64,000 nucleotides of DNA from Dehalococcoidia bacterium (lineage in GTDB: Bacteria; Chloroflexota; Dehalococcoidia; SM23-28-2; RBG-16-64-32). The DNA is taken from contig DAOUBD010000028.1 in the NCBI GenBank assembly GCA_034432935.1, positions 1,816 to 65,815 on the forward strand, read 5' to 3'. A program made the translations under genes and the position numbers. How positions within the stretch are numbered: the stretch's first letter is position 1; each line of letters opens with the position of its first letter. The notes below the pieces were generated by a model. That model did no database searches. It saw only the letters and a list, made by a program, of their open reading frames with translations, and had not been told where the DNA came from. This document shows, in pieces, positions 911-42,053 of the stretch.

Positions 911-985
911 TGGAGCCAACGGGGAGATTCGAACTCCCGACCCGCGGTTTACGAAACCGCTGCTCTACCGCTGAGCTACGTTGGC
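911..985 (-). tRNA. tRNA-Thr (anticodon CGU), CCA encoded
   Basis: Minus-strand cloverleaf built by hand: acceptor GCCAACG/CGTTGGC, U8, D-stem GCTC/GAGC, anticodon stem GCGGT/ACCGC with loop TTCGTAA (anticodon CGT), T-stem GGGAG/CTCCC with loop TTCGAAT, discriminator T then CCA. Confidence 0.85.
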
Positions 986-4966: not shown

Positions 4967-5629
4967 ATGCGCGATCTCCTGGTCATAGGCAGCGACACCC
5001 TGGCGCCCTACGTCCATGCCCTGAGGCAGGACGGTTATCGCGTAGAGGCATGCCCCCCGGGGCGCCTGGAGGCGCCGGCGGGCGGACGCTACGCCGCCGT
5101 CATCATCGAACTGGCGGCAGCCGCCGAGGACAGCGCTGCCAAGAGGCTGCTCGAGGCTGCTCAGCGGGGCGACGCGCCGGCCATCATCGCCATCATCCGG
5201 CCAGAGGACGCCGCCGGGTTCGACCCCGCCACCGGAGTGGACGACTTCTGCGTCGCCGGCTGCGCCCCAGAAGAGATCTGCGCCCGCGTGCGCCAGGTCA
5301 TCTGGAAGCGCCATCGGGTGGACGCGAGGAACGTTCTGAAATGCGGCGACCTGGTGATGGACCTGGCCAACTACACCGTGCACGTGGCCGGCCGCCCCGT
5401 CGAGCTGACCTACAAGGAGTACGAACTGTTGCGCTTTCTCGCCACTAACCGCGGGCGGGTCATCACCCGGGAGACGCTCCTCAGCAAGGTCTGGGGGTAC
5501 GACTTCTACGGGGGCGCCCGCACTGTGGACGTCCACATCCGCCGCCTGCGCTCCAAGATCGAGGACCGTCACAACACGTTCATCGAGACGGTGCGCAACG
5601 TAGGCTACCGCTTTCGCGCAACCCCCTAA
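4967..5629 (+). CDS. Atypical OmpR-family transcriptional regulator with degenerate (pseudo-)receiver domain
   Basis: C-terminal winged helix 'LTYKEYELLRFLATNRGRVITRETLLSKVWGYDFYGGARTVDVHIRRLRSKIE...VRNVGYRF'. N-terminal receiver fold lacks the acidic pocket (LLVIGSDT), the phospho-Asp (…VIIELAAAA…) and the conserved K-P. Confidence 0.6.
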   Translation: MRDLLVIGSDTLAPYVHALRQDGYRVEACPPGRLEAPAGGRYAAVIIELAAAAEDSAAKRLLEAAQRGDAPAIIAIIRPEDAAGFDPATGVDDFCVAGCAPEEICARVRQVIWKRHRVDARNVLKCGDLVMDLANYTVHVAGRPVELTYKEYELLRFLATNRGRVITRETLLSKVWGYDFYGGARTVDVHIRRLRSKIEDRHNTFIETVRNVGYRFRATP

Positions 5630-20078: not shown

Positions 20079-21584
20079 CTACAGCGTCGACCCGATCCCC
20101 GGGCAGGAAGGGACGACCGGATTGGAGAGGCCGGCCGCGTAGCGCAGGATGCGCAGGGCGTCCACGGCATCCACGGCGCCATCACAATTGACGTCCCCGT
20201 AGGCGAAGCCTAAGCCGGGGCGAACGTCGCCCGGATCGGGGCAAGAGGGCACGGTGAAGGGCAGGCCTGCCACGTGCCGCAGGACGAACAGGGCGTCCAC
20301 CGCATCAACGGCTTTGTCGCAGTTGACGTCGCCTTGCAGGCCTTGGGGCGGCGGCACGAAAGACTGCGCCTCGAAGGCCCCGATATCGCACCGGGGCGTG
20401 CCATCGCCATCGCCGTCCCGGGGCCGGGGCAGGCCCCGCTGGTCTACGGCGGGACATTGCGCGTCGTCGCCGCTGTCGAGGGCCGGGCTGCCCGGCAGGA
20501 GGGCATGGGTCGGCGTTGGGCCTCCGTTGTCGGCAAGGGGGCCCAGAACGTTCCCGGCGTTAGCGATATCGCCCGGGCCGGATAGTTGACAGGAGCCATC
20601 GCTGTCCAGGTTGTGCCCCAGGGAGACGGCTGGCGTGCCATCACAGTCTTCAGGGGAGTTGTCGGCGATGATAATGTTCACAACGTTGAGACTGGCGCTG
20701 CACGTATCACACACGAAGTTCAAGATTCCGCCGCCGCGTTCGGCGCTATTGCCAACGATGGTCACGTTAGTTAGGGTGACGTCGCCGTTTACGTTATCAA
20801 GGCCTGCGCCCAAGCGGGCGGTATTGCCGCTGATGGTGCTGTTGGTAATCGAGAGGGCGTTGCCCGTCACGGAGATGCCACCGCCGCTGCGCGATCCGCC
20901 GCTCTCTGACGTGACCTTGTTGCCGCTGATGGTGCTCTCTTCTATCGTGACATCCCCGTAGTTCGAGCGGATGCCGCCGCCCTCTGGGTTGGTGCCAGAC
21001 GGGTTGTCCACCGTCTGGTTACTGGCTACGACGGCGCGCCGCAGGTGCAACGTTCCAAAGTTGTAGATGCCGCCGCCGGCGTTGGCTACGTTGCCTATGA
21101 CGGAGATGTCCTCAAGGGTGAGCGTCCCATTGTTGTAGATGCCGCCGCCCAGTCCCGTGGTAGCGCCGTTGGCGATCGTTACACCCTGGATGACGACTAC
21201 ACCATCCGCCGTGAGGACGCGGTCGATGCCGGCGGCATCGATGATGGTGGCGCCGGGGCCAGCGCCGGTAATGGTCAGGTCCTCCCCGATGTTGAGGTCG
21301 CCGGTCGCGTCGAAGTATTCATCGGCGCCCGGTATGGTGAGGGTGTAGGTGCCGGCTGGCAGGGTGATGTCATCGGCGCCCGGGAGCGCGTTGGCCTCCA
21401 TGATGGCGGCGCGCAGGGTGCACTGGCCGCCGGCGCTGGCGCAGACGCCATCGCCAGGATTGGCATCGATGGCATCGGCCGTGGAGTTGACGGTAAAGCC
21501 AGCGCCAGCGGCAGGCTGTGGTCCCGGGAATGCCAAGGCCGCCGCCAGCAGGAGAACGACGGTGACGATAACATGTACGTACAT
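20079..21584 (-). CDS. Secreted right-handed parallel beta-helix protein with two C-terminal Cys-containing dockerin-like repeats
   Basis: Signal peptide. Repeated 'GGGIYN/NxGGGI' beta-helix turns. 'DVNCDKAVDAVDALFVLRHVAGL…SCP' and 'DVNCDGAVDAVDALRILRYAAGL…SCP'. Confidence 0.6.
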   Translation of the reverse strand: MYVHVIVTVVLLLAAALAFPGPQPAAGAGFTVNSTADAIDANPGDGVCASAGGQCTLRAAIMEANALPGADDITLPAGTYTLTIPGADEYFDATGDLNIGEDLTITGAGPGATIIDAAGIDRVLTADGVVVIQGVTIANGATTGLGGGIYNNGTLTLEDISVIGNVANAGGGIYNFGTLHLRRAVVASNQTVDNPSGTNPEGGGIRSNYGDVTIEESTISGNKVTSESGGSRSGGGISVTGNALSITNSTISGNTARLGAGLDNVNGDVTLTNVTIVGNSAERGGGILNFVCDTCSASLNVVNIIIADNSPEDCDGTPAVSLGHNLDSDGSCQLSGPGDIANAGNVLGPLADNGGPTPTHALLPGSPALDSGDDAQCPAVDQRGLPRPRDGDGDGTPRCDIGAFEAQSFVPPPQGLQGDVNCDKAVDAVDALFVLRHVAGLPFTVPSCPDPGDVRPGLGFAYGDVNCDGAVDAVDALRILRYAAGLSNPVVPSCPGIGSTL

Positions 21585-25821: not shown

Positions 25822-26676
25822 CTAGACGGCGGACAGGCGCCGCACCAGGAGGCAGGGCACGCGCCCATGCTGGGCGACGGGATAGGCCACGCTGCCCAGC
25901 ACCCGGCTCAGGCTGCCGTTGCCCCGGGTGGCCATGGCGATGAGACCCGCGCCACAACCGTCCGCCAGCCGCACGATCCCCTCGAAGGGCTCCCCGGTGG
26001 TCACCATGGTCTCCGCCTTTACACCGGCTCCCTGCGCCTCGAGGGCCGCCCGTGCCAGGAACGCCCGCGCCTCCTCCAGGCAACCATCCAGCGCCCGGGC
26101 CACGCCCGGCGGCGCCTCCCTCGGGTCGCTATAGATGCCGATGGGCCTCACGACGTGGCACAACACAACCGAGCCACCCACCGCACCCGCCAGCTCCAGG
26201 GCCGCCGGGAGCGCGTGACGGGATTCCGGAGTCGCATCCAGGGGTACGAGAATCTTGCTTACCTCCCGCCACGGCCGGCTGCCGCTTGCGGCCCCTCTCA
26301 CCACCACGACGGGCCGGGGCGCGTGGCGAAGGACCATGTCCAGAGCCTGGCCGAACAGCCAGCGGCTGGTCCCGTAGGTCATCACCGTCAGCTCCGCCCC
26401 AGCAGCCGTGGCCACGATCACCTCTGCCGCGACCCCAGAGGCCACCTCGACACTCACCTTGAGCCCCTCCGACTCGATGTTTGTCTGGTGGCGTTTGAGA
26501 TAACGCTGGGCCGGGCCAGAGCCATCCGGGCGGCCCCCCTCCAGCACCGTCAAGAGGTGAAGGGACGCGCCGCAGCGGGCCGCGAGATGCTTGGCCCAGG
26601 CGAGCCCTGCCTCGGCAGCCGGGGTGCCATCCAATGGCGCGAGGATCTTCCTAGACATACGTGCCCCCAAGGGCAA
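25822..26676 (-). CDS. Tandem universal stress protein (UspA x2)
   Basis: Two Usp modules, each with an 'ILVPxDGSxxS' start and a C-terminal 'GSVxxxVxxHAxxPVLVV' ATP-binding motif. Confidence 0.75.
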   Translation of the reverse strand: MPLGARMSRKILAPLDGTPAAEAGLAWAKHLAARCGASLHLLTVLEGGRPDGSGPAQRYLKRHQTNIESEGLKVSVEVASGVAAEVIVATAAGAELTVMTYGTSRWLFGQALDMVLRHAPRPVVVVRGAASGSRPWREVSKILVPLDATPESRHALPAALELAGAVGGSVVLCHVVRPIGIYSDPREAPPGVARALDGCLEEARAFLARAALEAQGAGVKAETMVTTGEPFEGIVRLADGCGAGLIAMATRGNGSLSRVLGSVAYPVAQHGRVPCLLVRRLSAV

Positions 26677-26680
26677 GACG

Positions 26681-26695
26681 TTAACAACCGGTTAA
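26681..26695. promoter_or_regulatory. AT-rich near-palindrome TTAACAACCGGTTAA between divergent usp and nagA
   Basis: Imperfect inverted repeat centred on ACCGGT in a divergent promoter region. Confidence 0.2.
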
Positions 26696-26744
26696 GAGTT
26701 ACAAGGGCCGAGCCAGGGCAGCGGGTGTATGATGCCAACAGACC

Positions 26745-27899
26745 ATGAGCACGCTGCTGCGCAACGCCCACATCGTTACCCCGGATGAGGAGATACCTTC
26801 GGGCTCCGTCCTCATAGAGGGCCAGAAGATAGCGGGCGTAGGCGCCGACCTGGCGCCCCCGGACGGCGCGCAGACCCTCGATCTCGGAGGGCTGACCCTG
26901 GCGCCCGGGTTCGTCGACCTGCATGTGCACGGCGGCGGCGGCTTCTCCCTCATGACCCCCGATCCAAGCGAGGCGCAGGGCTACAGCGCCTGGGTTCCGG
27001 CCACCGGCGCCACCTCGTTCCTGGCCACCATCTGCGCTTCCACACTGGAAGAGGGCCTGCGTTTCATCCGGGCCGCCGTGAAGGCCGCAGGAAACCCGCC
27101 GGGCGCTAGCCTGCTGGGCATCAACCTGGAGGGCCCCTTTGTCAACTCCGCGCGCCGGGGGGCCCTGCCCCCATCGTGGCCGCTGCCCCCGGACCAGCGC
27201 GCCTTCGATGGCATAGCCCAGGCCGCCCAGGGCCGCCTGCTGGTGATGACGGTAGCCCCCGAGCTGGCGGGCGCCGATGCCCTCATCCGGGCGGCCGTGG
27301 CCCGCGGCGTACGTGTGTCCGTTGGCCACACGGACGCAGATTACGAGACCGCCCGTAGGGCGTACGATGCCGGGGCCTCCCAGGTCACCCACGCCTTCAA
27401 CGCCATGCGCCCTTTCCACCACCGCGAGCCCGGGCCGGTAGCGGCCGCGCTGGACTCGCCGGGGGTCATCCTGGAGGTCATCGCTGACGGCGAGCATCTG
27501 CACCCCTCGGTGGTGGGCCTCCTGGCGCGCGCCTTCGGCCCTGAACGCATCGCCCTGGTCACCGACGGCGTCGCCCCAGCGGGCCTGGCAGCCGGAGCCC
27601 TGCGCATCGGGATGGAAGTGGCCCAGCTCCGGGGCCGCCGCGTGGAGCTTCCGGACGGCACCCTGGCCGGCGGCGCTTCCACCATGGACGCCCTTGTGCG
27701 CAACGTCGTGCAGTGGGGCTGCGCCAGCCTTTCGGAGGCCGTTCGTATGGCCGCATCCACGCCGGCCGCCGCCCTAGGCCTGGACCGGCGCAAGGGCCGC
27801 ATCGCCCCCGGCTACGACGCCGACCTGGTGGCCCTGGACGCGCACCTGACGCCAGTGATGACCTGGGTGATGGGGCAGCTCGTTTTCTCGGCCCGCTGA
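26745..27899 (+). CDS. nagA: N-acetylglucosamine-6-phosphate deacetylase
   Basis: 'APGFVDLHVHGGGG' metal-binding motif and amidohydrolase fold. Confidence 0.85.
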   Translation: MSTLLRNAHIVTPDEEIPSGSVLIEGQKIAGVGADLAPPDGAQTLDLGGLTLAPGFVDLHVHGGGGFSLMTPDPSEAQGYSAWVPATGATSFLATICASTLEEGLRFIRAAVKAAGNPPGASLLGINLEGPFVNSARRGALPPSWPLPPDQRAFDGIAQAAQGRLLVMTVAPELAGADALIRAAVARGVRVSVGHTDADYETARRAYDAGASQVTHAFNAMRPFHHREPGPVAAALDSPGVILEVIADGEHLHPSVVGLLARAFGPERIALVTDGVAPAGLAAGALRIGMEVAQLRGRRVELPDGTLAGGASTMDALVRNVVQWGCASLSEAVRMAASTPAAALGLDRRKGRIAPGYDADLVALDAHLTPVMTWVMGQLVFSAR

Positions 27900-27989
27900 G
27901 AGGCTCTGCCTCTTCCGCTGTAACCGCTGAGGCCTGTGGGCGTCTTACCATTCAGGACTGCACTCTGAAGTCAGTCCGGCTTCGAGCTT

Positions 27990-28080
27990 CGACAAGGGCA
28001 AACCGTTCCGAAAGGGCGGGGCGCAAAGCCACGGGCCTAAACCCCGGCGCTAAACGGGGCAAGGCCGCCGGGCCGCCGAA
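27990..28080 (+). promoter_or_regulatory. c-di-GMP-I (GEMM) riboswitch-like leader
   Basis: 'GGGCAAACCGUUCCGAAAGGGCGGGGCGCAAAGCCACGGGCCUAAACC' aligns almost base-for-base with the Vc2 aptamer core 'GGGCAAACCAUUCGAAAGAGUGGGACGCAAAGCCUCCGGCCUAAACC'. It has a GNRA-capped P2 (CCGUUC-GAAA-GGGCGG) and a P3 hairpin (CCCCG…CGGGG), and sits 85 bp upstream of a GGDEF gene. Confidence 0.6.
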
Positions 28081-28164
28081 GGCGGATTGAAGCTAAACGC
28101 ATACCGGGACGCTGGCCCTTCGGAGCTGCAGCCGGAGAGACGCTACAGATAGACAGGTGGAAGC

Positions 28165-29022
28165 ATGCGAGCTCCGGGGCCCCACGGGCGAGAAACTATA
28201 GAGGAGGAGATCGAACGGGAAGAGCGCGCCGTTGGCCGCGTGGTCAAGGCTGGCGGCGGGGCCGTCACAATCACCACCCTGGCCGCCCTGGGTCTCCTGG
28301 TGATGAGCGCGGACCACGCCTGGCAGTACCTGACGCTGGCCATGCTCGGCGGAGTGCCCCTGCTGTATGCCTTCGGTACGACAGCCGTCACCCGCCGCAT
28401 GCAAAAGTCGCTCCTGGAGCGGTACCAGGATCAGATACGGAGGCGCTTGGCTGAGCTGGAGGAGACGGCCTCACGGGATGAACTAACAGGGCTGCGCAAC
28501 CGGCGCTATTTCTACCAGGTGCTGGCGGCAGAGATCGAGCGCTGCCAGAGCAGCAAGGAGCCGTTGGCCCTGATCATGATGGACATGGACAAGCTCAAGA
28601 ACATCAACGACGAGTACGGTCACCGGGTGGGCGATGCCGTCATCGCCGGCCTGGGCCGGGCCATCGCCACCCTCACCAGGGCCACCGACGTCGCGGCCCG
28701 GCTGGGGGGCGACGAGTTCGGCATCGTCATGCCGGGCACGGACAAGCGGGGCGCCTTCACCCTGGCCCAACGCCTCATGGACTACCTGGAGAGGACCCCC
28801 ATGTACGAAGAAGGCGCCACCCGCGTCATGGCCAGCGTCTCCATCGGCGTCTCCGGCTTCCCCTGGGGAGGCGAGTCCGTGGAGGAGCTGATCCAGTGGG
28901 CAGACGCCGATATGTACGCCAACAAAGTCTCGCGCCGCCTGCCCCCCGTTATGGCCAAGGCCGAGGAAGGCCGCGAGACCCGCCGTCTGCCCGACGCCGA
29001 CGACTTCATAACAGGGTTCTGA
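28165..29022 (+). CDS. Membrane-anchored GGDEF diguanylate cyclase
   Basis: TM N-terminus; 'RLGGDEFGIV' active site and I-site 'RxxD' context. Confidence 0.8.
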   Translation: MRAPGPHGRETIEEEIEREERAVGRVVKAGGGAVTITTLAALGLLVMSADHAWQYLTLAMLGGVPLLYAFGTTAVTRRMQKSLLERYQDQIRRRLAELEETASRDELTGLRNRRYFYQVLAAEIERCQSSKEPLALIMMDMDKLKNINDEYGHRVGDAVIAGLGRAIATLTRATDVAARLGGDEFGIVMPGTDKRGAFTLAQRLMDYLERTPMYEEGATRVMASVSIGVSGFPWGGESVEELIQWADADMYANKVSRRLPPVMAKAEEGRETRRLPDADDFITGF

Positions 29023-29939
29023 TGGCAACGGAACGCGACCCCAGGCCGCTGCGCCCAACAACAGGAGGAGAGCCCCCGCTCATGAAGCAGCCTAAGCATC
29101 CCACGAAGGGACGCCCCAAGCTTGTCAGCGCCGCCATCTGGCTGGCCGCCGCCCTCGCGGCCGGAGCGCTGGCGGCCCTGGCCTATTTCGTCAGCCCCAT
29201 CCTCACTCTGGTCATCGTCTGCTTCCTCCTCTGGTTCACCCTCTGGCGCCTCATCCGTAACTTCTACCGGCAACAGGCGTCCTTCCACCGTCAGCTGGAA
29301 GAGATGAGGGCCAGCTACGAGTCCATCATCGGCACCCTGAGCGGCGCCCTGGGCCTCGTGGACAGCGTAACGGCCCGGCAGGCCCAGCGGATGTCTCACC
29401 TGGCCTCCGTAGTCGCCTGGCAGATGGGGCTGCGCAAGGAAGACGTCCGCCGCATCGAGCAGGCGGCCATCCTCCACGATATCGGCAAGATGGGCATCGG
29501 GGAGAACGTTCTCTCCAAGGCGGGCCCCCTGACCCCCAGCGAGTGGGAGGCGATGAAACGCCACCCCAAGCTGGGCTTCCAGGTGCTGCACGGCATCGGC
29601 TTCCTGCGGGACGTCGCCGAGATCGTCTACGCGCACCACGAACGCTGGGATGGAGGCGGCTACCCGAGGGGCCTTTGCGGCGAGGAGATACCGCTGGGTT
29701 CGCGCATCTTCGCCGTTATCGACGCCTATCAGGCCATGACTTCGGACCGCCCCTACCGCCGCGCCATGAGCCATGCTGAGGCCGTGGAGGAGCTGGTGCG
29801 CAACGCCGGCAGCCAGTTCGACCCCGGCGTCGTCCAGGCCTTTCTGGAAGCAGAGAGGCGTGGCCTCATCTCGCCTGAGGCCGCTGCCCCGCCGGAGGCA
29901 GCGGCCCCATCGGGCGCCACGGGAGTCGCCCTCGAATGA
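29022..29939 (+). CDS. HD-GYP phosphodiesterase with 2 TM N-terminus
   Basis: 'HDIGKMGI' and 'HHERWDGGGYPRGL'. ATG overlaps the GGDEF TGA (TGATG). Confidence 0.75.
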   Translation: MATERDPRPLRPTTGGEPPLMKQPKHPTKGRPKLVSAAIWLAAALAAGALAALAYFVSPILTLVIVCFLLWFTLWRLIRNFYRQQASFHRQLEEMRASYESIIGTLSGALGLVDSVTARQAQRMSHLASVVAWQMGLRKEDVRRIEQAAILHDIGKMGIGENVLSKAGPLTPSEWEAMKRHPKLGFQVLHGIGFLRDVAEIVYAHHERWDGGGYPRGLCGEEIPLGSRIFAVIDAYQAMTSDRPYRRAMSHAEAVEELVRNAGSQFDPGVVQAFLEAERRGLISPEAAAPPEAAAPSGATGVALE

Positions 29940-30508
29940 CCCAGCCGCTGACGGCGCCCGAGGCCAGCATCACCCGCGTGGTAGCCGAGATCGTCATGGG
30001 CCGCTACCGGGTGACAGGTGAGCTGCGTCTTCCTGGCCTCCCCCGCCGCTTCGTGGACCTCATGAACGCCCTGGAGCGCTCCTTTGCCATCGCCTTCGAC
30101 GCCCTCATCGAGCCCCTGGCAGCCGGCGGCGACGGCGACACGGCGACGCGCCTCGATGTCGTCCAGCTCCAGCCGGAGGCCATCCTCTTCGCCATCAAGC
30201 GTGGCGGAGATGAGCCGCCGCGCAGCAGTTTCGAGGCGGTAAAGAAGGTGCCGGTGCCCTCCGTAATAGTGCTGCCCGGGTTCAAGATCGTGGGCAAGGT
30301 CTGGGAGATCCCAGGGGCAGACCCCCTGCGTGTGGCCTTGGTGGGCAAGCACCAGTTCGTGCCGGTCACTGAGGCAGAGATCTTCTCCTCCTACGGCGCG
30401 GCCTCTTGGCACGAGCCCTTCGTGGCGGTCAACATGGGCCGGGCCCTCCTCTACGCCCCGCGGACCGCGGAGCGGGGCCGCGGCGAGAATCCCGGCCCGG
30501 ACATCTAG
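29936..30508 (+). CDS. Hypothetical protein, 190 aa, translationally coupled (ATGA) to the HD-GYP gene
   Basis: Continuous ORF, same strand, 4-nt overlap. No recognisable domain; not PilZ (no RxxxR…DxSxxG). Confidence 0.5.
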   Translation: MTQPLTAPEASITRVVAEIVMGRYRVTGELRLPGLPRRFVDLMNALERSFAIAFDALIEPLAAGGDGDTATRLDVVQLQPEAILFAIKRGGDEPPRSSFEAVKKVPVPSVIVLPGFKIVGKVWEIPGADPLRVALVGKHQFVPVTEAEIFSSYGAASWHEPFVAVNMGRALLYAPRTAERGRGENPGPDI

Positions 30509-31341
30509 ACGTCGTCCGGCAGTTCTTGCCCCGTCTGCCTGGCCAAACGCTCGGCGGCCCCGAAGCGTTCGCGCCGGAACTCTTCCCCGTAGCCGAAGCC
30601 GGCCCGCTGGCCCACCGCCCTGGCCCAGGCCCTGATCTGCGCCTCGATGATGGGCCTGAAGTCCTTGGGGCTCGCGTCCCGCAGCGCCGGGATCTCCAGG
30701 CCAGAGGCCCGCAAGGCGATCTGGGCCTCCATTACCGTCATCTCCATCTGGCAGACGTGGGCGCAGAGGGCGTCGATCTTGCGGCCAATGTAACTGCTGA
30801 TGTCCACCACCTTGTTCACGTCCCGGGGCGACTTGGCGAAGTAGTAACGCTCGCCGACGTAGTGGGGCGCCAACCCCTCATCGCGGTGTTCCGGGTGATA
30901 GAGGGGGAAGTGGGCGAAGGCTGCCGCCTCTGCCGCGGCCCAGGCCACCGCCCGGTGGTCCTGATGGTCCTCGTAGGGCGCGTGGGGATCCCAGGTGAAG
31001 ATGACGTCCGGCCTGTGCCGGCGGATGGCGCGCATGCAGCGCTCCCTCAGCTCGTTCAGAGGAGTCTCGGAGAGGCGGCCGTCTTCGTAGCCGAGGAACT
31101 CCACGTCTGGGTTCACGCCCAGGATGCGCGCCCCCTCCCGGGCCTCCTGCCGCCGGGCCTCGGCCGTGAACTGGGGGCTCCACTCCGGCTCCAATGTCCC
31201 GCGCTCGTTGTTGGTGGCGATGACCTCCCGGATCTCGTACCCCAGGTCCGCCATCTTGGCTATCGTGCCGCCCGCCATGAACTCCATGTCGTCGGCGTGG
31301 GCGACGATGACCAGCACCCGCTTCTTGTCCTCGGCAGACAT
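30505..31341 (-). CDS. PIG-L/LmbE-family N-acetylglucosaminyl deacetylase
   Basis: 'VLVIVAHADDMEFMAGGT' and 'HPDHRAV' zinc-binding motifs. Confidence 0.75.
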   Translation of the reverse strand: MSAEDKKRVLVIVAHADDMEFMAGGTIAKMADLGYEIREVIATNNERGTLEPEWSPQFTAEARRQEAREGARILGVNPDVEFLGYEDGRLSETPLNELRERCMRAIRRHRPDVIFTWDPHAPYEDHQDHRAVAWAAAEAAAFAHFPLYHPEHRDEGLAPHYVGERYYFAKSPRDVNKVVDISSYIGRKIDALCAHVCQMEMTVMEAQIALRASGLEIPALRDASPKDFRPIIEAQIRAWARAVGQRAGFGYGEEFRRERFGAAERLARQTGQELPDDV

Positions 31342-31345
31342 GCCT

Positions 31346-32725
31346 CTACCCTCCCCGCTGCGCTGCGCCTCGGGCGGCCTCTTGCAAGACGCTTGCCGCA
31401 GCCTCTCGCACTATCGCCTCCGCCTCGGGCGAGCAGAAGGTGACCCCGGACTCGTAGCCGCCTTCCTCGTAGGCGTCTGGCGGGATGACGTAGCCCACGT
31501 AGTCGTTGGCGTAGCAGGCGATGAGCAGTTCGTCCAGCCCGGACGCCCGCCGGATGGCCTCCCCAGTCTCGGCGAAGAACTCGCCAGGCAAGCCTAGGAC
31601 GGCGACGCCGTCACCTAGCACTAGCGCCTGGACCTCCGTGCGCTGGACGCGGGCCTCGCCGCGCACCCGGGCCCAGGCCGCAGCCCAGCGCTCGCTCTCG
31701 GTCCTGGTAAGCTGGGCCATCACCTCCCGCCGCTCGCCGCTCCCCTCAGGCAGCGCCCCGGCCCTGGCCCGTAGCTCCTGGAGGCGGACGGCGTACTCCT
31801 CATCGGGCGCGAAGGGGCGTAGCGGCAGGGCGATCTCGCGCAAAGCAGCGCCGAACTGGGGCGTGACGAGGCGGCCTGGGACCGGCTTCTCCGGGAACTC
31901 GTTCCAGCGGATGTTGTGGGCCCGCTGGCCGGGGCCCAGGGTGCGCAGCTCACCCATTACGCGCAGGGCCTGGCCGGCTATGATCTGGCCTACTCGGGCC
32001 ACGCTCTCGAAGTCCTGCCTGATCCACACGGGATTGACGTTCCCGCAGGCCCCGTTGAGGTAGACGCAGGGGGCGCCGGTCTGCTCCAGCAGGAGGCGGG
32101 CAGCGGCGCCTGGGAACTCCCCCGAGAGCATGAGGTTGGCCCCGCTCAAGACGGTGCCGTGGCATGCGAAATTGAGCACAGACGCCACGGGGCCTTCGTC
32201 CGCATCGGCCAGCAGCACCCGCATTACGGGATCGATGGGCCAGTCCGGATGGCGCCGGTTCATGCTTACGGTGTCCAGGATGGTCCGGCCGGCCTTCAGG
32301 GTGGCCGGCCTGCGTCCCTCCCAGGCCCGGGCGATGGCCCCCGCCACCTGGTCCACGAAGCGCCCGGCTAGCGCCTCGTCCAGGCGCGAGAACATCCCTC
32401 CCCGCAGGCCATAGGGGCCCGCATGGTTGTGCGTGGCGGCGAGAAGCAGGCCTTCCGCCGGCACGCCCGCGGCCTGGAAGGCCCGGCGGCGCAGTTCCGC
32501 CGTCACCTCCGGGTGCATCCCCAGGAGGTCGCAGGAGACTATGGCGCAGCGGCCGCTGGGTCCGTAGTCCAGGACAACGACCCGCGCCTCCAGAGGGTCG
32601 TGCACGCCCTCCGAGGGTGTCGTGCGGTTGCCGTAGCCATCCATCAGAACGCCCACGGGCGGCGTGATGTCGGCGGCGGCCGCGCCGGCCAGGAGCGAGG
32701 CCATAGCGCCACGAATGATAGGCAA
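31346..32725 (-). CDS. Neutral/alkaline ceramidase-like hydrolase
   Basis: N-terminal 'DITPPVG…GYGNR…HDPLEARVVVL' matches the neutral ceramidase N-domain signature. Confidence 0.45.
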   Translation of the reverse strand: MPIIRGAMASLLAGAAAADITPPVGVLMDGYGNRTTPSEGVHDPLEARVVVLDYGPSGRCAIVSCDLLGMHPEVTAELRRRAFQAAGVPAEGLLLAATHNHAGPYGLRGGMFSRLDEALAGRFVDQVAGAIARAWEGRRPATLKAGRTILDTVSMNRRHPDWPIDPVMRVLLADADEGPVASVLNFACHGTVLSGANLMLSGEFPGAAARLLLEQTGAPCVYLNGACGNVNPVWIRQDFESVARVGQIIAGQALRVMGELRTLGPGQRAHNIRWNEFPEKPVPGRLVTPQFGAALREIALPLRPFAPDEEYAVRLQELRARAGALPEGSGERREVMAQLTRTESERWAAAWARVRGEARVQRTEVQALVLGDGVAVLGLPGEFFAETGEAIRRASGLDELLIACYANDYVGYVIPPDAYEEGGYESGVTFCSPEAEAIVREAAASVLQEAARGAAQRGG

Positions 32726-40275: not shown

Positions 40276-40547
40276 CGCCCGATAGGACTGCCCCTCGCCG
40301 CGTTCCCTCGCTGCTTCCACCGGTTTTCCGTCCTTTGCCGCTCCTTGCTCCGTTACCACAGGGGGAGCTATGGCCCGCCTTCTCTAAACCAATTCTAAAC
40401 TTTTCACCGTTCGGTCACTTTCCGCCCGGTAACAGCCCTATCTACGAGCCCGTCTCAGCTAGTGCGACCAACGAGACAGCCGCTATAGAGGGAGAGATAG
40501 ACCCGCCCGTGAGAAACAGCACACCGCACCCCAGGCGCGCCATCGAG

Positions 40548-42053
40548 ATGCTCCTCGCCTTCGCAGCGACCCTGGGGATCGCCACCCTGGTGGCCATCGA
40601 TGGCGCCGTGCCCAGCGTCTTCTCGACACTGTTCTTCGTGCCCATAATCCTCGTGGCCTACCGCCACGGCCTGGGGCCGGCCTTGGGCGTAGCCGCCATC
40701 GCCTCGCTGGCCTCCAGCCCGGCGATGGAGCTCTTAGGCGCCAGGCTGGACGAATCGGTGAAGCCGGTGCTCTGGCTGGGCTGGCCGGCGGTATACCTCT
40801 TCCTCGCCGTCAGCCTCAACCAGTGGGCCAGCATTCAGGAGCAGCGGGCGCAGCTCGAGGCCACGGAGCGCCACCTTCTGGACGTCCGCGCCCGTCACGA
40901 CCGCCGTGAGCAAGAGCTGGAGACCCTTTCTCACATCCACACCACCATCCTCTCGGGCGGAGACGAGCCCTCGGTGGTGAACGAGATCACGAGGCGCATC
41001 GCTGAGGCCTGCGGCGCCAAGACCTGCATGATCACGGTGCCTATGGGCGGTACCGCCCAGCGGCCCTTTTTGCCCGTCGGCTTCGCCGAGGAGGTCTTCA
41101 ACCGCCTCTTCCCCGCCGGCGCGCCCTACGGCGAGGGTGTCGAAGGCTGGGCCATGCTGCACCGCCGCGTCGCCGTCTCCCGCAACGTCTTCCAGGACCC
41201 CCGCTACGACAGGCTGCGAGACTTCGCCGGGCTCACCGGCATCGTCAGCGCTGCGGCAGCGCCCGTGGAGCTGGACGAAGACCTGTTTGGCGCCCTCGTC
41301 ATCTGCTACCCGGAAGAGCGAGACTTCACTCCCGAGGAGATCACCCGCCTGGAGCGCCTGGCCCGCCAGACCGAGATGGCCATCCGCAACGTGCGGCAAA
41401 GGGAGTCGCTGGCCCGCTTCGCCTTCGAGACGGCCCTGGCCCTGACGGAGGCCATCGAGAGCCGGGATCCCTACACGGGGGGCCACTGCCGGCGCCTGGC
41501 CGAGCACGCCGCCATCATCGCCAAACGGCTGGCCCTGCCGCCGCGAGAGCTAGAGGCCGTCCGCCTGGGCGCCGCGCTGCACGACATGGGGAAGATCGTG
41601 GTGCCGGACTCTGTCCTCAAGAAGCCGGGGAAGCTGACGCCCGAGGAGTACGCCATCGTCAAGCAGCATTGCTACTCGGGCGGCCAGATCTGCAAGCGAG
41701 TCGGCTTCCTGATGAACGCCTATCCCATCGTCTACCACCATCACGAGCGCTGGGACGGCAAGGGGTATCCGGACGGGCTGAAGGGAGAACAGATCCCCCT
41801 GGGGGCCCGCATCGTGGCCGTCATCGACGCCTTCGACGCCATGACCACGGACCGTCCTTACCGCCAGGCGATGGAACGTGCCGAGGCCATCGAGATCCTC
41901 CGGGACGGCGCTGGCCACCAATGGGACCCCAACGTCGTCAAGGTGCTGCTGGAGACCGCCGAGATCGTAGGGCACGACCACGACGATGGCTTCCACCAGC
42001 GCAACGGCCTCTTCGTGCCGGACCACCTTTCGGAGACCGCCGACCAGCGCTAA
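40548..42053 (+). CDS. Membrane sensor – GAF – HD-GYP phosphodiesterase
   Basis: N-terminal TM helices, a GAF-like middle, 'HDMGKIVV' and 'HHHERWDGKGYPDGL'. Start uncertain. Confidence 0.7.
   Translation: MLLAFAATLGIATLVAIDGAVPSVFSTLFFVPIILVAYRHGLGPALGVAAIASLASSPAMELLGARLDESVKPVLWLGWPAVYLFLAVSLNQWASIQEQRAQLEATERHLLDVRARHDRREQELETLSHIHTTILSGGDEPSVVNEITRRIAEACGAKTCMITVPMGGTAQRPFLPVGFAEEVFNRLFPAGAPYGEGVEGWAMLHRRVAVSRNVFQDPRYDRLRDFAGLTGIVSAAAAPVELDEDLFGALVICYPEERDFTPEEITRLERLARQTEMAIRNVRQRESLARFAFETALALTEAIESRDPYTGGHCRRLAEHAAIIAKRLALPPRELEAVRLGAALHDMGKIVVPDSVLKKPGKLTPEEYAIVKQHCYSGGQICKRVGFLMNAYPIVYHHHERWDGKGYPDGLKGEQIPLGARIVAVIDAFDAMTTDRPYRQAMERAEAIEILRDGAGHQWDPNVVKVLLETAEIVGHDHDDGFHQRNGLFVPDHLSETADQR

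Follow-up and report, generated by a model that had tools for sequence, protein, structure and literature searches.

The question raised by this stretch of DNA (64,000 nucleotides of contig DAOUBD010000028.1 from a Dehalococcoidia bacterium, called the window throughout) is whether an operon that encodes both a diguanylate cyclase and an HD-GYP phosphodiesterase is placed under an RNA sensor of cyclic di-GMP (c-di-GMP), the compound that the two enzymes make and break, and what the third protein of the same operon contributes. A sequence-only reading had proposed a GEMM-I (c-di-GMP-I) riboswitch in the operon leader, and this proposal is supported by Rfam, by protein-family scans and by conservation in relatives. 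Judged by its sequence and alignment, the segment 27987-28081 of the forward strand is a canonical c-di-GMP-I (GEMM-I) aptamer for which binding of c-di-GMP is predicted. Very probably it is a functional class-I c-di-GMP aptamer serving the leader of an operon whose three genes encode GGDEF, HD-GYP and DUF6812 proteins.

The first line of evidence comes from covariance models. The whole 64-kb window was compared with all 4227 Rfam models by cmscan at the curated thresholds, and only two matches passed, one tRNA and one riboswitch. The riboswitch match spans 27988-28081 on the forward strand with an E value of 1.3e-11, and it is the sole riboswitch match in the window. For this full-length match the top model was RF03167 (c-di-GMP-I-GGC), with 59.9 bits against a gathering score of 59. 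The cmscan output hides lower-scoring models of the same Rfam clan, and in gathering mode it was found that one more clan member had cleared its own cut-off and was masked by clan competition. When the P1 strands were trimmed away and only the core (27993-28076) was searched, the best model was RF01051 (c-di-GMP-I), which scored 50.1 bits and has its gathering score at 35; such a match is far beyond chance. The covariance-model search that the sequence-only reading had suggested was thus positive both in the 64-kb scan and on the core.

If the RF03167 label were taken at its face value, the leader would contain a rare variant with an altered pocket, perhaps for another ligand, and the operon would not be wired to c-di-GMP. 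We take the name GGC to denote the nucleotides at the ligand-contact positions 20, 47 and 92; the model reportedly originates from the survey of specificity variants by Weinberg et al. in 2017. Besides topping the full-length match in the window, RF03167 is also the top-scoring model for the aptamers of three relatives (L006, L008 and L009), but their scores of 55.8, 51.9 and 51.5 all fall below the cut-off of 59. The defining position argues more directly against the variant. The window reads CGC-A-AAGCC at the diagnostic site, where the consensus of RF01051 is CGC-A-AAgCc and that of RF03167 is CGC-G-AAgCc, and the nucleotide (28025 in the window) is A in all seven aptamers that we compared. 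RF01051 is the best model for the other three relatives (L004, L014 and L022, with 56.2, 56.1 and 54.9 bits, respectively). Moreover, the distal P3 hairpin is not represented in RF03167 and appears as a 17-nucleotide insert in the alignment to that model, whereas RF01051 models this hairpin. With A at the diagnostic position and RF01051 as the best model on the core, well above its cut-off, the aptamer is canonical; the label GGC arises from clan competition and is an artefact, not a sign of membership. Membership in the GGC variant was therefore rejected, and a leader that answers to some other ligand is very improbable. The window thus provides a case in which clan competition within Rfam gives a canonical aptamer the name of a specificity variant. 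The aptamers of L006, L008 and L009 are likewise mislabelled, and the GGC variant may be over-called when G+C-rich genomes are annotated automatically.

The second line of evidence is the anatomy of the aptamer, summarized in Table 1. All the motif strings quoted by the sequence-only reading were located at their places, including the P2 helix with its GAAA (GNRA) cap. In the Vc2 riboswitch of Vibrio cholerae, c-di-GMP is contacted by G20, A47 and C92 (PMC4744006), and the contact list of PDB entry 3IRW includes C46-A47-A48-A49-G50 (PMC7288161), so that A47 is the first A after CGC. The window shares with RF01051 and Vc2 the three-helix architecture, the contacts G20, A47 and C92, the C44-G83 pair, and the docking of the P2 GAAA tetraloop on a P3 receptor of the form CCUAAA.../...CAAGG, the two halves of which (CC-UAAA at 28036-28041 and CAA-GG at 28060-28064) lie on either side of the distal P3 hairpin. 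It also shares the classic gene association of the class, since the 5' leader in which it lies belongs to a gene of c-di-GMP metabolism: on the same strand, the 3' end of the aptamer is 83 nucleotides before the cyclase ATG (28165). The original link between GEMM RNAs and c-di-GMP was drawn from the many that stand before genes for its synthesis, its degradation or the response to it (PMC7266159), and therefore a c-di-GMP-I aptamer before a cyclase/phosphodiesterase operon is an ordinary arrangement. Relative to Vc2, the window aptamer differs in being very G+C-rich (0.69) and in its extended distal P3 hairpin; its host belongs to an uncultured Chloroflexota/Dehalococcoidia lineage, its platform has no terminator, and a single leader serves a cyclase, a phosphodiesterase and a DUF6812 protein. 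With RF03167 it shares the overall sequence and fold, but it carries A and not the defining G at position 47. Our literature search returned no paper on c-di-GMP-I riboswitches in Chloroflexi, which should not be taken as evidence that none exist. In itself the riboswitch is of limited novelty, as it extends a known class to uncultured Dehalococcoidia-type Chloroflexota.

The third line of evidence is conservation. A word-indexed search with the third protein of the operon returned only nine close homologues, and the gene order GGDEF, HD-GYP, third protein was present in every contig that carries one. A metagenome scan added seven loci, for which tblastn showed the same order wherever the contig extends far enough, with third proteins down to 35% identity. 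The hosts of these relatives in the species-representative genome collection are Dehalococcoidia or Chloroflexota metagenome-assembled genomes. An aptamer occupies the equivalent site before the operon in six further loci, which together with the window fall into two sequence groups: group A consists of the window, L006, L008 and L009, and group B of L004, L014 and L022 (L012 is the same contig as L004 and was counted once). We aligned the seven aptamers structurally by hand and tabulated each pair. The equivalents of G20, A47, C92, C44 and G83 are invariant in 7/7 aptamers, while the helices vary. P1 is CUUCG/CGAAG in some aptamers and UACCG/CGGUG in others, with an additional bulged variant, and its pairs 2 and 3 change on both sides (U-A to A-U and U-A to C-G). 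Pair 1 of P3c passes from G-C through G-U to A-U, and the distal P3 hairpins are unrelated in sequence and nevertheless all foldable. Only a few non-canonical pairs are conserved, and these are flagged in the Rfam alignments too. Since the contacts are invariant in seven loci and the helices show compensatory changes, this small alignment of two sequence groups indicates purifying selection on the aptamer structure.

The distribution of the aptamer also contains the points that weigh against an essential role for it. The operon is kept without an aptamer in L001 and L002 (both from one genome), L007, L019 and L023, which amount to four or five relatives, and these retain the promoter motif described below; therefore the riboswitch is dispensable for the operon. 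It could be argued from this that the window aptamer is a decaying relic without a regulatory role, since close relatives have dropped it and kept both operon and promoter. Such decay is hard to reconcile with seven loci in two groups that retain all ligand and tertiary contacts together with compensatory changes in the helices, and we regard a relic as highly improbable next to a functional aptamer. The patchy occurrence of the aptamer before an otherwise identical operon offers a natural comparison for what the riboswitch layer adds. Among the aptamer-less relatives, L001 (4044-4273) and L007 (2197-2427) have in common a leader of about 230 nucleotides that is unrelated to the aptamer sequence, while the leaders of L019 and L023 are shorter. 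No Rfam match at E <= 1 was found in L001 4040-4290, and the sequence common to L001 and L007 may either be a regulatory leader of another, undescribed kind or serve as a mere spacer.

Table 1. Coordinates of the leader elements, the operon and its surroundings. Positions refer to the window unless a locus is named.
Feature	Position	Strand	Remarks
c-di-GMP-I aptamer	27987-28081	+	Rfam and hand-made structural alignment of seven orthologous aptamers
P1	27987-27991 / 28077-28081	+	
P2	27998-28024	+	GAAA tetraloop 28010-28013
P3	28027-28074	+	receptor halves 28038-28041 and 28060-28062; distal hairpin 28042-28059
GGGCAAACC	27996-28004	+	sequence
GCGCAAAGCC	28021-28030	+	sequence
GGCCUAAACC	28034-28043	+	sequence; followed by CCCCG/CGGGG hairpin 28042-28059
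Ligand-contact equivalents	G20 = 27997, A47 = 28025, C92 = 28076	+	RF01051 alignment with PMC4744006 and PMC7288161
Interhelical pair equivalents	C44 = 28022, G83 = 28067	+	
AGCUUCGA	27985-27992	+	5' strand of P1 plus flank
UUGAAGCU	28088-28095		complementary to AGCUUCGA
UCGGAGCU	28120-28127		complementary to AGCUUCGA
GGCGG	28082-28086		can form a hairpin with CCGCC 28073-28077
Expression platform	28082-28164	+	
Shine-Dalgarno sequence AGGUGG	28155-28160	+	in an internal loop
Candidate translation-blocking helix	28163-28181 with 28113-28133		start codon 28165 and first five or so cyclase codons; about -28 kcal/mol
Promoter-like element	GTAAC 27920-27924, CGTCTTA 27941-27947	+	16-nucleotide spacer; conserved motif
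Copies of the promoter-like motif	20997-21022 (-), 26676-26702 (-), 27920-27945 (+), 40429-40455 (+)		
5'-proximal hairpin	GGACUG 27955-27960 / CAGUCC 27972-27977	+	sequence; conserved in four group-A leaders
Diguanylate cyclase, 285 amino acids	28165-29022	+	Pfam GGDEF E 6.6e-42; TIGR00254 E 1.2e-46
HD-GYP c-di-GMP phosphodiesterase, 305 amino acids	29022-29939	+	Pfam HD_5 E 2.9e-40, HD E 1.2e-18
DUF6812-family protein, 190 amino acids	29936-30508	+	Pfam; soluble
DUF6812/cNMP_binding fusion proteins	P0086, P0092, P0096, P0104, P0105, P0114, P0149; L026 684-1745		
Amidohydrolase gene	26745-27899	+	upstream of operon
PIG-L deacetylase and neutral-ceramidase-family genes	30505-32725	-	downstream of operon
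Second HD-GYP gene	40335-42053	+	motif HHERWDGKGYP; promoter-like motif 40429-40455
tRNA gene	914-985	-	71 bits (Rfam); unrelated to the riboswitch

For the aptamer to act on the operon, it has to be transcribed with it. A promoter-like motif, GTAAC-N16-CGTCTTA, is invariant in the six leaders that were aligned, and the motif stands upstream of the cyclase gene in 12/12 locus records covering the region, with the riboswitch present or absent. Of its relaxed form, GTAAC-N15-18-CGTCT, the window contains four copies where 0.12 would be expected. Promoters of extracytoplasmic-function (ECF) sigma factors are recognized by AAC in the -35 element and CGT in the -10 element, 16-17 nucleotides apart, and the segment 27920-27947 is probably the ECF-sigma-type promoter of the operon. 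The predicted transcript start lies at about 27953-27958, upstream of the aptamer, and gives a 5' untranslated leader of about 210 nucleotides. The sequence-only reading had held that a transcript starting downstream of 28080 would speak against a riboswitch; the conserved motif instead predicts a start well before that position. The hairpin near the predicted 5' end may have a role such as protection of the mRNA end.

The other copies of the motif point beyond the operon. One is directly upstream of a divergent universal-stress-protein gene (open reading frame 25822-26676, minus strand), a pairing of motif and gene that is also found in L006 and L007; of the remaining two, one lies before a second HD-GYP gene and the other within an open reading frame. 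Taken together, the four copies look like a small ECF-sigma-type stress regulon that would include the c-di-GMP genes. A crude regular-expression search, which is a weak test, found no ECF sigma gene inside the window.

We now consider how the aptamer would be read out. The terminator scan detected no intrinsic terminator in the leader, and transcription attenuation by such a terminator was rejected, as the scan showed no terminator-like site there. On the other hand, the duplex analysis showed that the start region is paired with a segment about 45 nucleotides upstream in 5/6 leaders. The stability of this duplex is about -28 kcal/mol in the window and -15 to -20 kcal/mol in the other four leaders, and the paired sequences differ between groups A and B. 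The exception is L014: read from its first in-frame ATG (2221), its start region has a different and weaker partner (-10.7 kcal/mol), and when 2230 (the second ATG) is taken as the start, a pairing like that of the other leaders can be seen by eye. Because no intrinsic terminator was detected, and because the start codon and first codons are paired with an upstream segment, control of translation initiation is most likely.

The arrangement of complementary segments suggests how P1 might be coupled to the start region. In the window both UUGAAGCU and UCGGAGCU can pair with AGCUUCGA, which includes the 5' strand of P1, and in group B an analogous complementarity exists between CCGAAA and UUUCGG. 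Binding of c-di-GMP would lock P1, so that 28113-28133 would be left free to occlude the start region. Without the ligand, AGCUUCGA would pair co-transcriptionally with UCGGAGCU and the start region would stay open. The net effect would be negative feedback of c-di-GMP on the module that both makes and breaks it, and such an OFF switch is the direction that we slightly favour, still as a tentative choice at less than even odds.

Several results weigh against this scheme. In equilibrium folding with P1 forced, free or blocked, the accessibility of the start codon and the Shine-Dalgarno sequence is unchanged in 4/6 leaders and changes slightly in 2/6; switching of this accessibility at equilibrium was accordingly rejected. 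The anti-sequestor pairing of AGCUUCGA with UCGGAGCU is equalled by shuffled P1 strands in 22/500 trials (4%) in the window, and it is not the best available partner in L008, L009, L004 and L014 (4/6 leaders). In group A, P1 meets its strongest competition from UUGAAGCU together with the CCGCC/GGCGG hairpin, and this alternative leaves the start region untouched. Finally, the platform hairpin is not significantly more stable than shuffled sequence (z = -0.89), and it was rejected as an unusually stable structure; for the whole leader z is -0.64. The three-element switch, consisting of the P1 5' strand, 28120-28127 and the start region, is therefore retained as the favoured model on a tentative basis only.

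It is quite possible that the aptamer binds c-di-GMP and works in another way, as an ON switch, through transcription elongation (a Rho-dependent terminator or one that lacks a U-tract), or through mRNA stability. In the equilibrium models P1 and the start region are not coupled, and the strongest competitor of P1 lies directly 3' of the aptamer with the downstream hairpin left intact, which would fit a read-out other than ribosome access. Both ON and OFF riboswitches of the c-di-GMP-I class are known, Vc1 being an ON switch (PMC4744006). Set against these mechanisms are the lack of an intrinsic terminator-like site in the leader and the helical start codon in 5/6 leaders (with L014 added by eye), which is the usual signature of translational control and is not decisive. 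The description of the operon as feedback-wired in the sequence-only reading is plausible in this light, but the sign of the regulation is not derivable from constrained folding or duplex analysis.

The two enzymes behind the leader are clearly recognizable, and both identities agree with those first assigned (Table 1; HD-GYP domains are matched in Pfam by the model HD_5). In the cyclase, the GGDEF motif (amino acids 181-185) is intact and is preceded, five residues upstream, by the RxxD inhibitory site (I-site) RATD at amino acids 172-175. With this site, the cyclase should be product-inhibited. Hydropathy indicates one or two hydrophobic segments at its N-terminus, and it is predicted to be membrane-anchored. 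The phosphodiesterase carries the HD motif at amino acid 152 and HHERWDGGGYP at amino acids 205-215; a hydrophobic stretch at about amino acids 32-80, in which two transmembrane segments can be seen by eye, predicts that it is membrane-anchored as well. The domain scans recognized no sensor domain in either protein. The reading frames overlap as had been claimed: the cyclase TGA (29020-29022) overlaps the HD-GYP ATG (29022-29024) in TGATG, and the ATG of the third gene (29936-29938) overlaps the HD-GYP TGA (29937-29939) in ATGA, so that the frames share 1 and 4 nucleotides, respectively. All three genes would therefore be affected by control at the first start codon.

The third gene product had been described as a protein of no recognisable family, and this is wrong. 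It passes the Pfam model DUF6812 (PF20660) with 33 bits against a cut-off of 27.1 over amino acids 135-167, and 70/72 full-length relatives match the same model. Of the roughly 175 residues that make up the conserved module, this model covers only 53. When 1.8 billion representatives were searched with a profile, 262 relatives were returned (counted as representatives at 50% identity), most of them with 170-200 residues and aligned from end to end. An indexed search gave 524 clusters at 90% identity, mostly annotated as hypothetical protein and coming from Candidatus Limnocylindrales and other Chloroflexota. The term DUF6812 did not occur in the literature searched. Since the family is functionally uncharacterised, calling the protein an undescribed third component is still fair.

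A structure model of the third protein consists of two tandem Sm/LSm-like small barrels at amino acids 12-91 and 105-175, each a bent five-stranded barrel that superposes on Sm domains. The two halves show no sequence similarity that would indicate an internal repeat. No solved protein was matched by hmmsearch against the PDB sequences, NCBIfam gave no match, and none of the libraries scanned recognized a nucleotide-binding domain. The protein was also considered as a PilZ protein and rejected, as it has neither the RxxxR nor the (D/N)xSxxG motif. Compared with Sm, LSm and Hfq proteins, the identities are only 5-15% and the Foldseek E value is only 7e-3; the helix is located between strands 2 and 3 and not at the N-terminus, and each chain holds two domains. 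We therefore do not file it as a member of the Sm family, and it is Sm-like in its modelled fold only.

Two independent genomic associations tie DUF6812 to cyclic-nucleotide signalling. The first is operon linkage: in every examined member of the subfamily of the window the third gene follows the cyclase and HD-GYP genes, and the overlap of its start codon with the HD-GYP stop recurs in the group-A relatives. The second is gene fusion. All of the family members longer than 330 residues (7/7) consist of the tandem DUF6812 module followed by a C-terminal cNMP_binding domain (PF00027), which places the module fused to the sensor where an output domain would sit in CRP-like cNMP-binding proteins. 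These fusions occur in at least seven clusters at 50% identity, and close relatives of one of them are annotated as Chloroflexota. In its setting the third protein resembles receptors of c-di-GMP, in that it would be co-expressed with c-di-GMP enzymes under a c-di-GMP sensor, but it differs from CRP in having no helix-turn-helix and from PilZ in having neither of the motifs named above. From the strict linkage within the subfamily and the Rosetta-stone fusion to a cyclic-nucleotide sensor elsewhere, we tentatively suggest, as its likeliest role, that the third protein is an output or adaptor component of cyclic-nucleotide signalling and not a passenger, although we put this at somewhat less than an even chance. 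Of the two roles envisaged by the sequence-only reading, that of an effector thus receives some support from the fusions, and that of a partner-switch receives none. The one fusion locus examined, L026, shows a stand-alone gene with uninformative neighbours.

The general form of this suggestion, namely that the tandem Sm-like DUF6812 module serves cyclic-nucleotide signalling in bacteria as an output or effector domain that has so far gone unrecognised, is bolder and has to be called doubtful at present. If it were true, the protein in the window would be the stand-alone partner of the cyclase/HD-GYP pair, acting as a receptor of c-di-GMP (or pGpG) or as a relay to RNA or DNA, and in other Chloroflexota the module would be joined directly to a cNMP-binding sensor. 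In that case the operon would form a complete and self-contained module to make, break and read c-di-GMP. For an uncharacterised family of several hundred members, the two associations provide a first functional clue and a testable hypothesis.

A different branch of the family weighs against a general link to c-di-GMP. In the Limnocylindrales-type loci L015-L018 (30-34% identity), the DUF6812 gene starts at 5001, ends at 56xx, and follows a gene for an ATP-dependent DNA ligase of 565-572 amino acids at a distance of 48-98 nucleotides, with no signalling gene nearby. The conserved neighbourhood comprises an acetyltransferase, a rhodanese and an aminotransferase; as the four loci are syntenic, they count as one observation. 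This branch hints at a role related to nucleic acids. The third gene of the window could accordingly be a passenger that shares the transcript and is unrelated to c-di-GMP, for example a nucleic-acid-binding housekeeping factor. Such a factor would agree with the ligase neighbourhood, in which c-di-GMP genes are lacking, with a modelled fold like that of the RNA-binding Sm/LSm proteins and with the missing PilZ-type motifs. It would leave unexplained why the order of cyclase, HD-GYP and DUF6812 genes is kept in every subfamily member examined, down to 35% identity, why this order persists when the upstream neighbour has changed and whether or not a riboswitch is present, why the start and stop overlap in group A, and why at least seven 50%-identity clusters combine the tandem module with a cyclic-nucleotide-binding domain in one protein. 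A passenger is thus somewhat unlikely.

The wider surroundings of the operon are also conserved. The upstream amidohydrolase is presumably NagA-like, and the synteny of amidohydrolase, operon, PIG-L deacetylase and ceramidase genes is kept in most relatives. In L004 of group B the upstream neighbour is a cation-efflux gene, and both the operon and the aptamer are still present. At the other end, the DUF6812 gene (ending at 30508 on the forward strand) and the convergent PIG-L-family deacetylase gene (30505-31341, minus strand) overlap at their stop codons, and therefore there is no room for a terminator between them. The Rfam scan of the window found no riboswitch before the second HD-GYP gene. 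Its protein has a long N-terminal region that, by eye, may be membrane-spanning and GAF-like. The tight convergence of the DUF6812 and PIG-L genes is found in L004, L006 and L010 as well.

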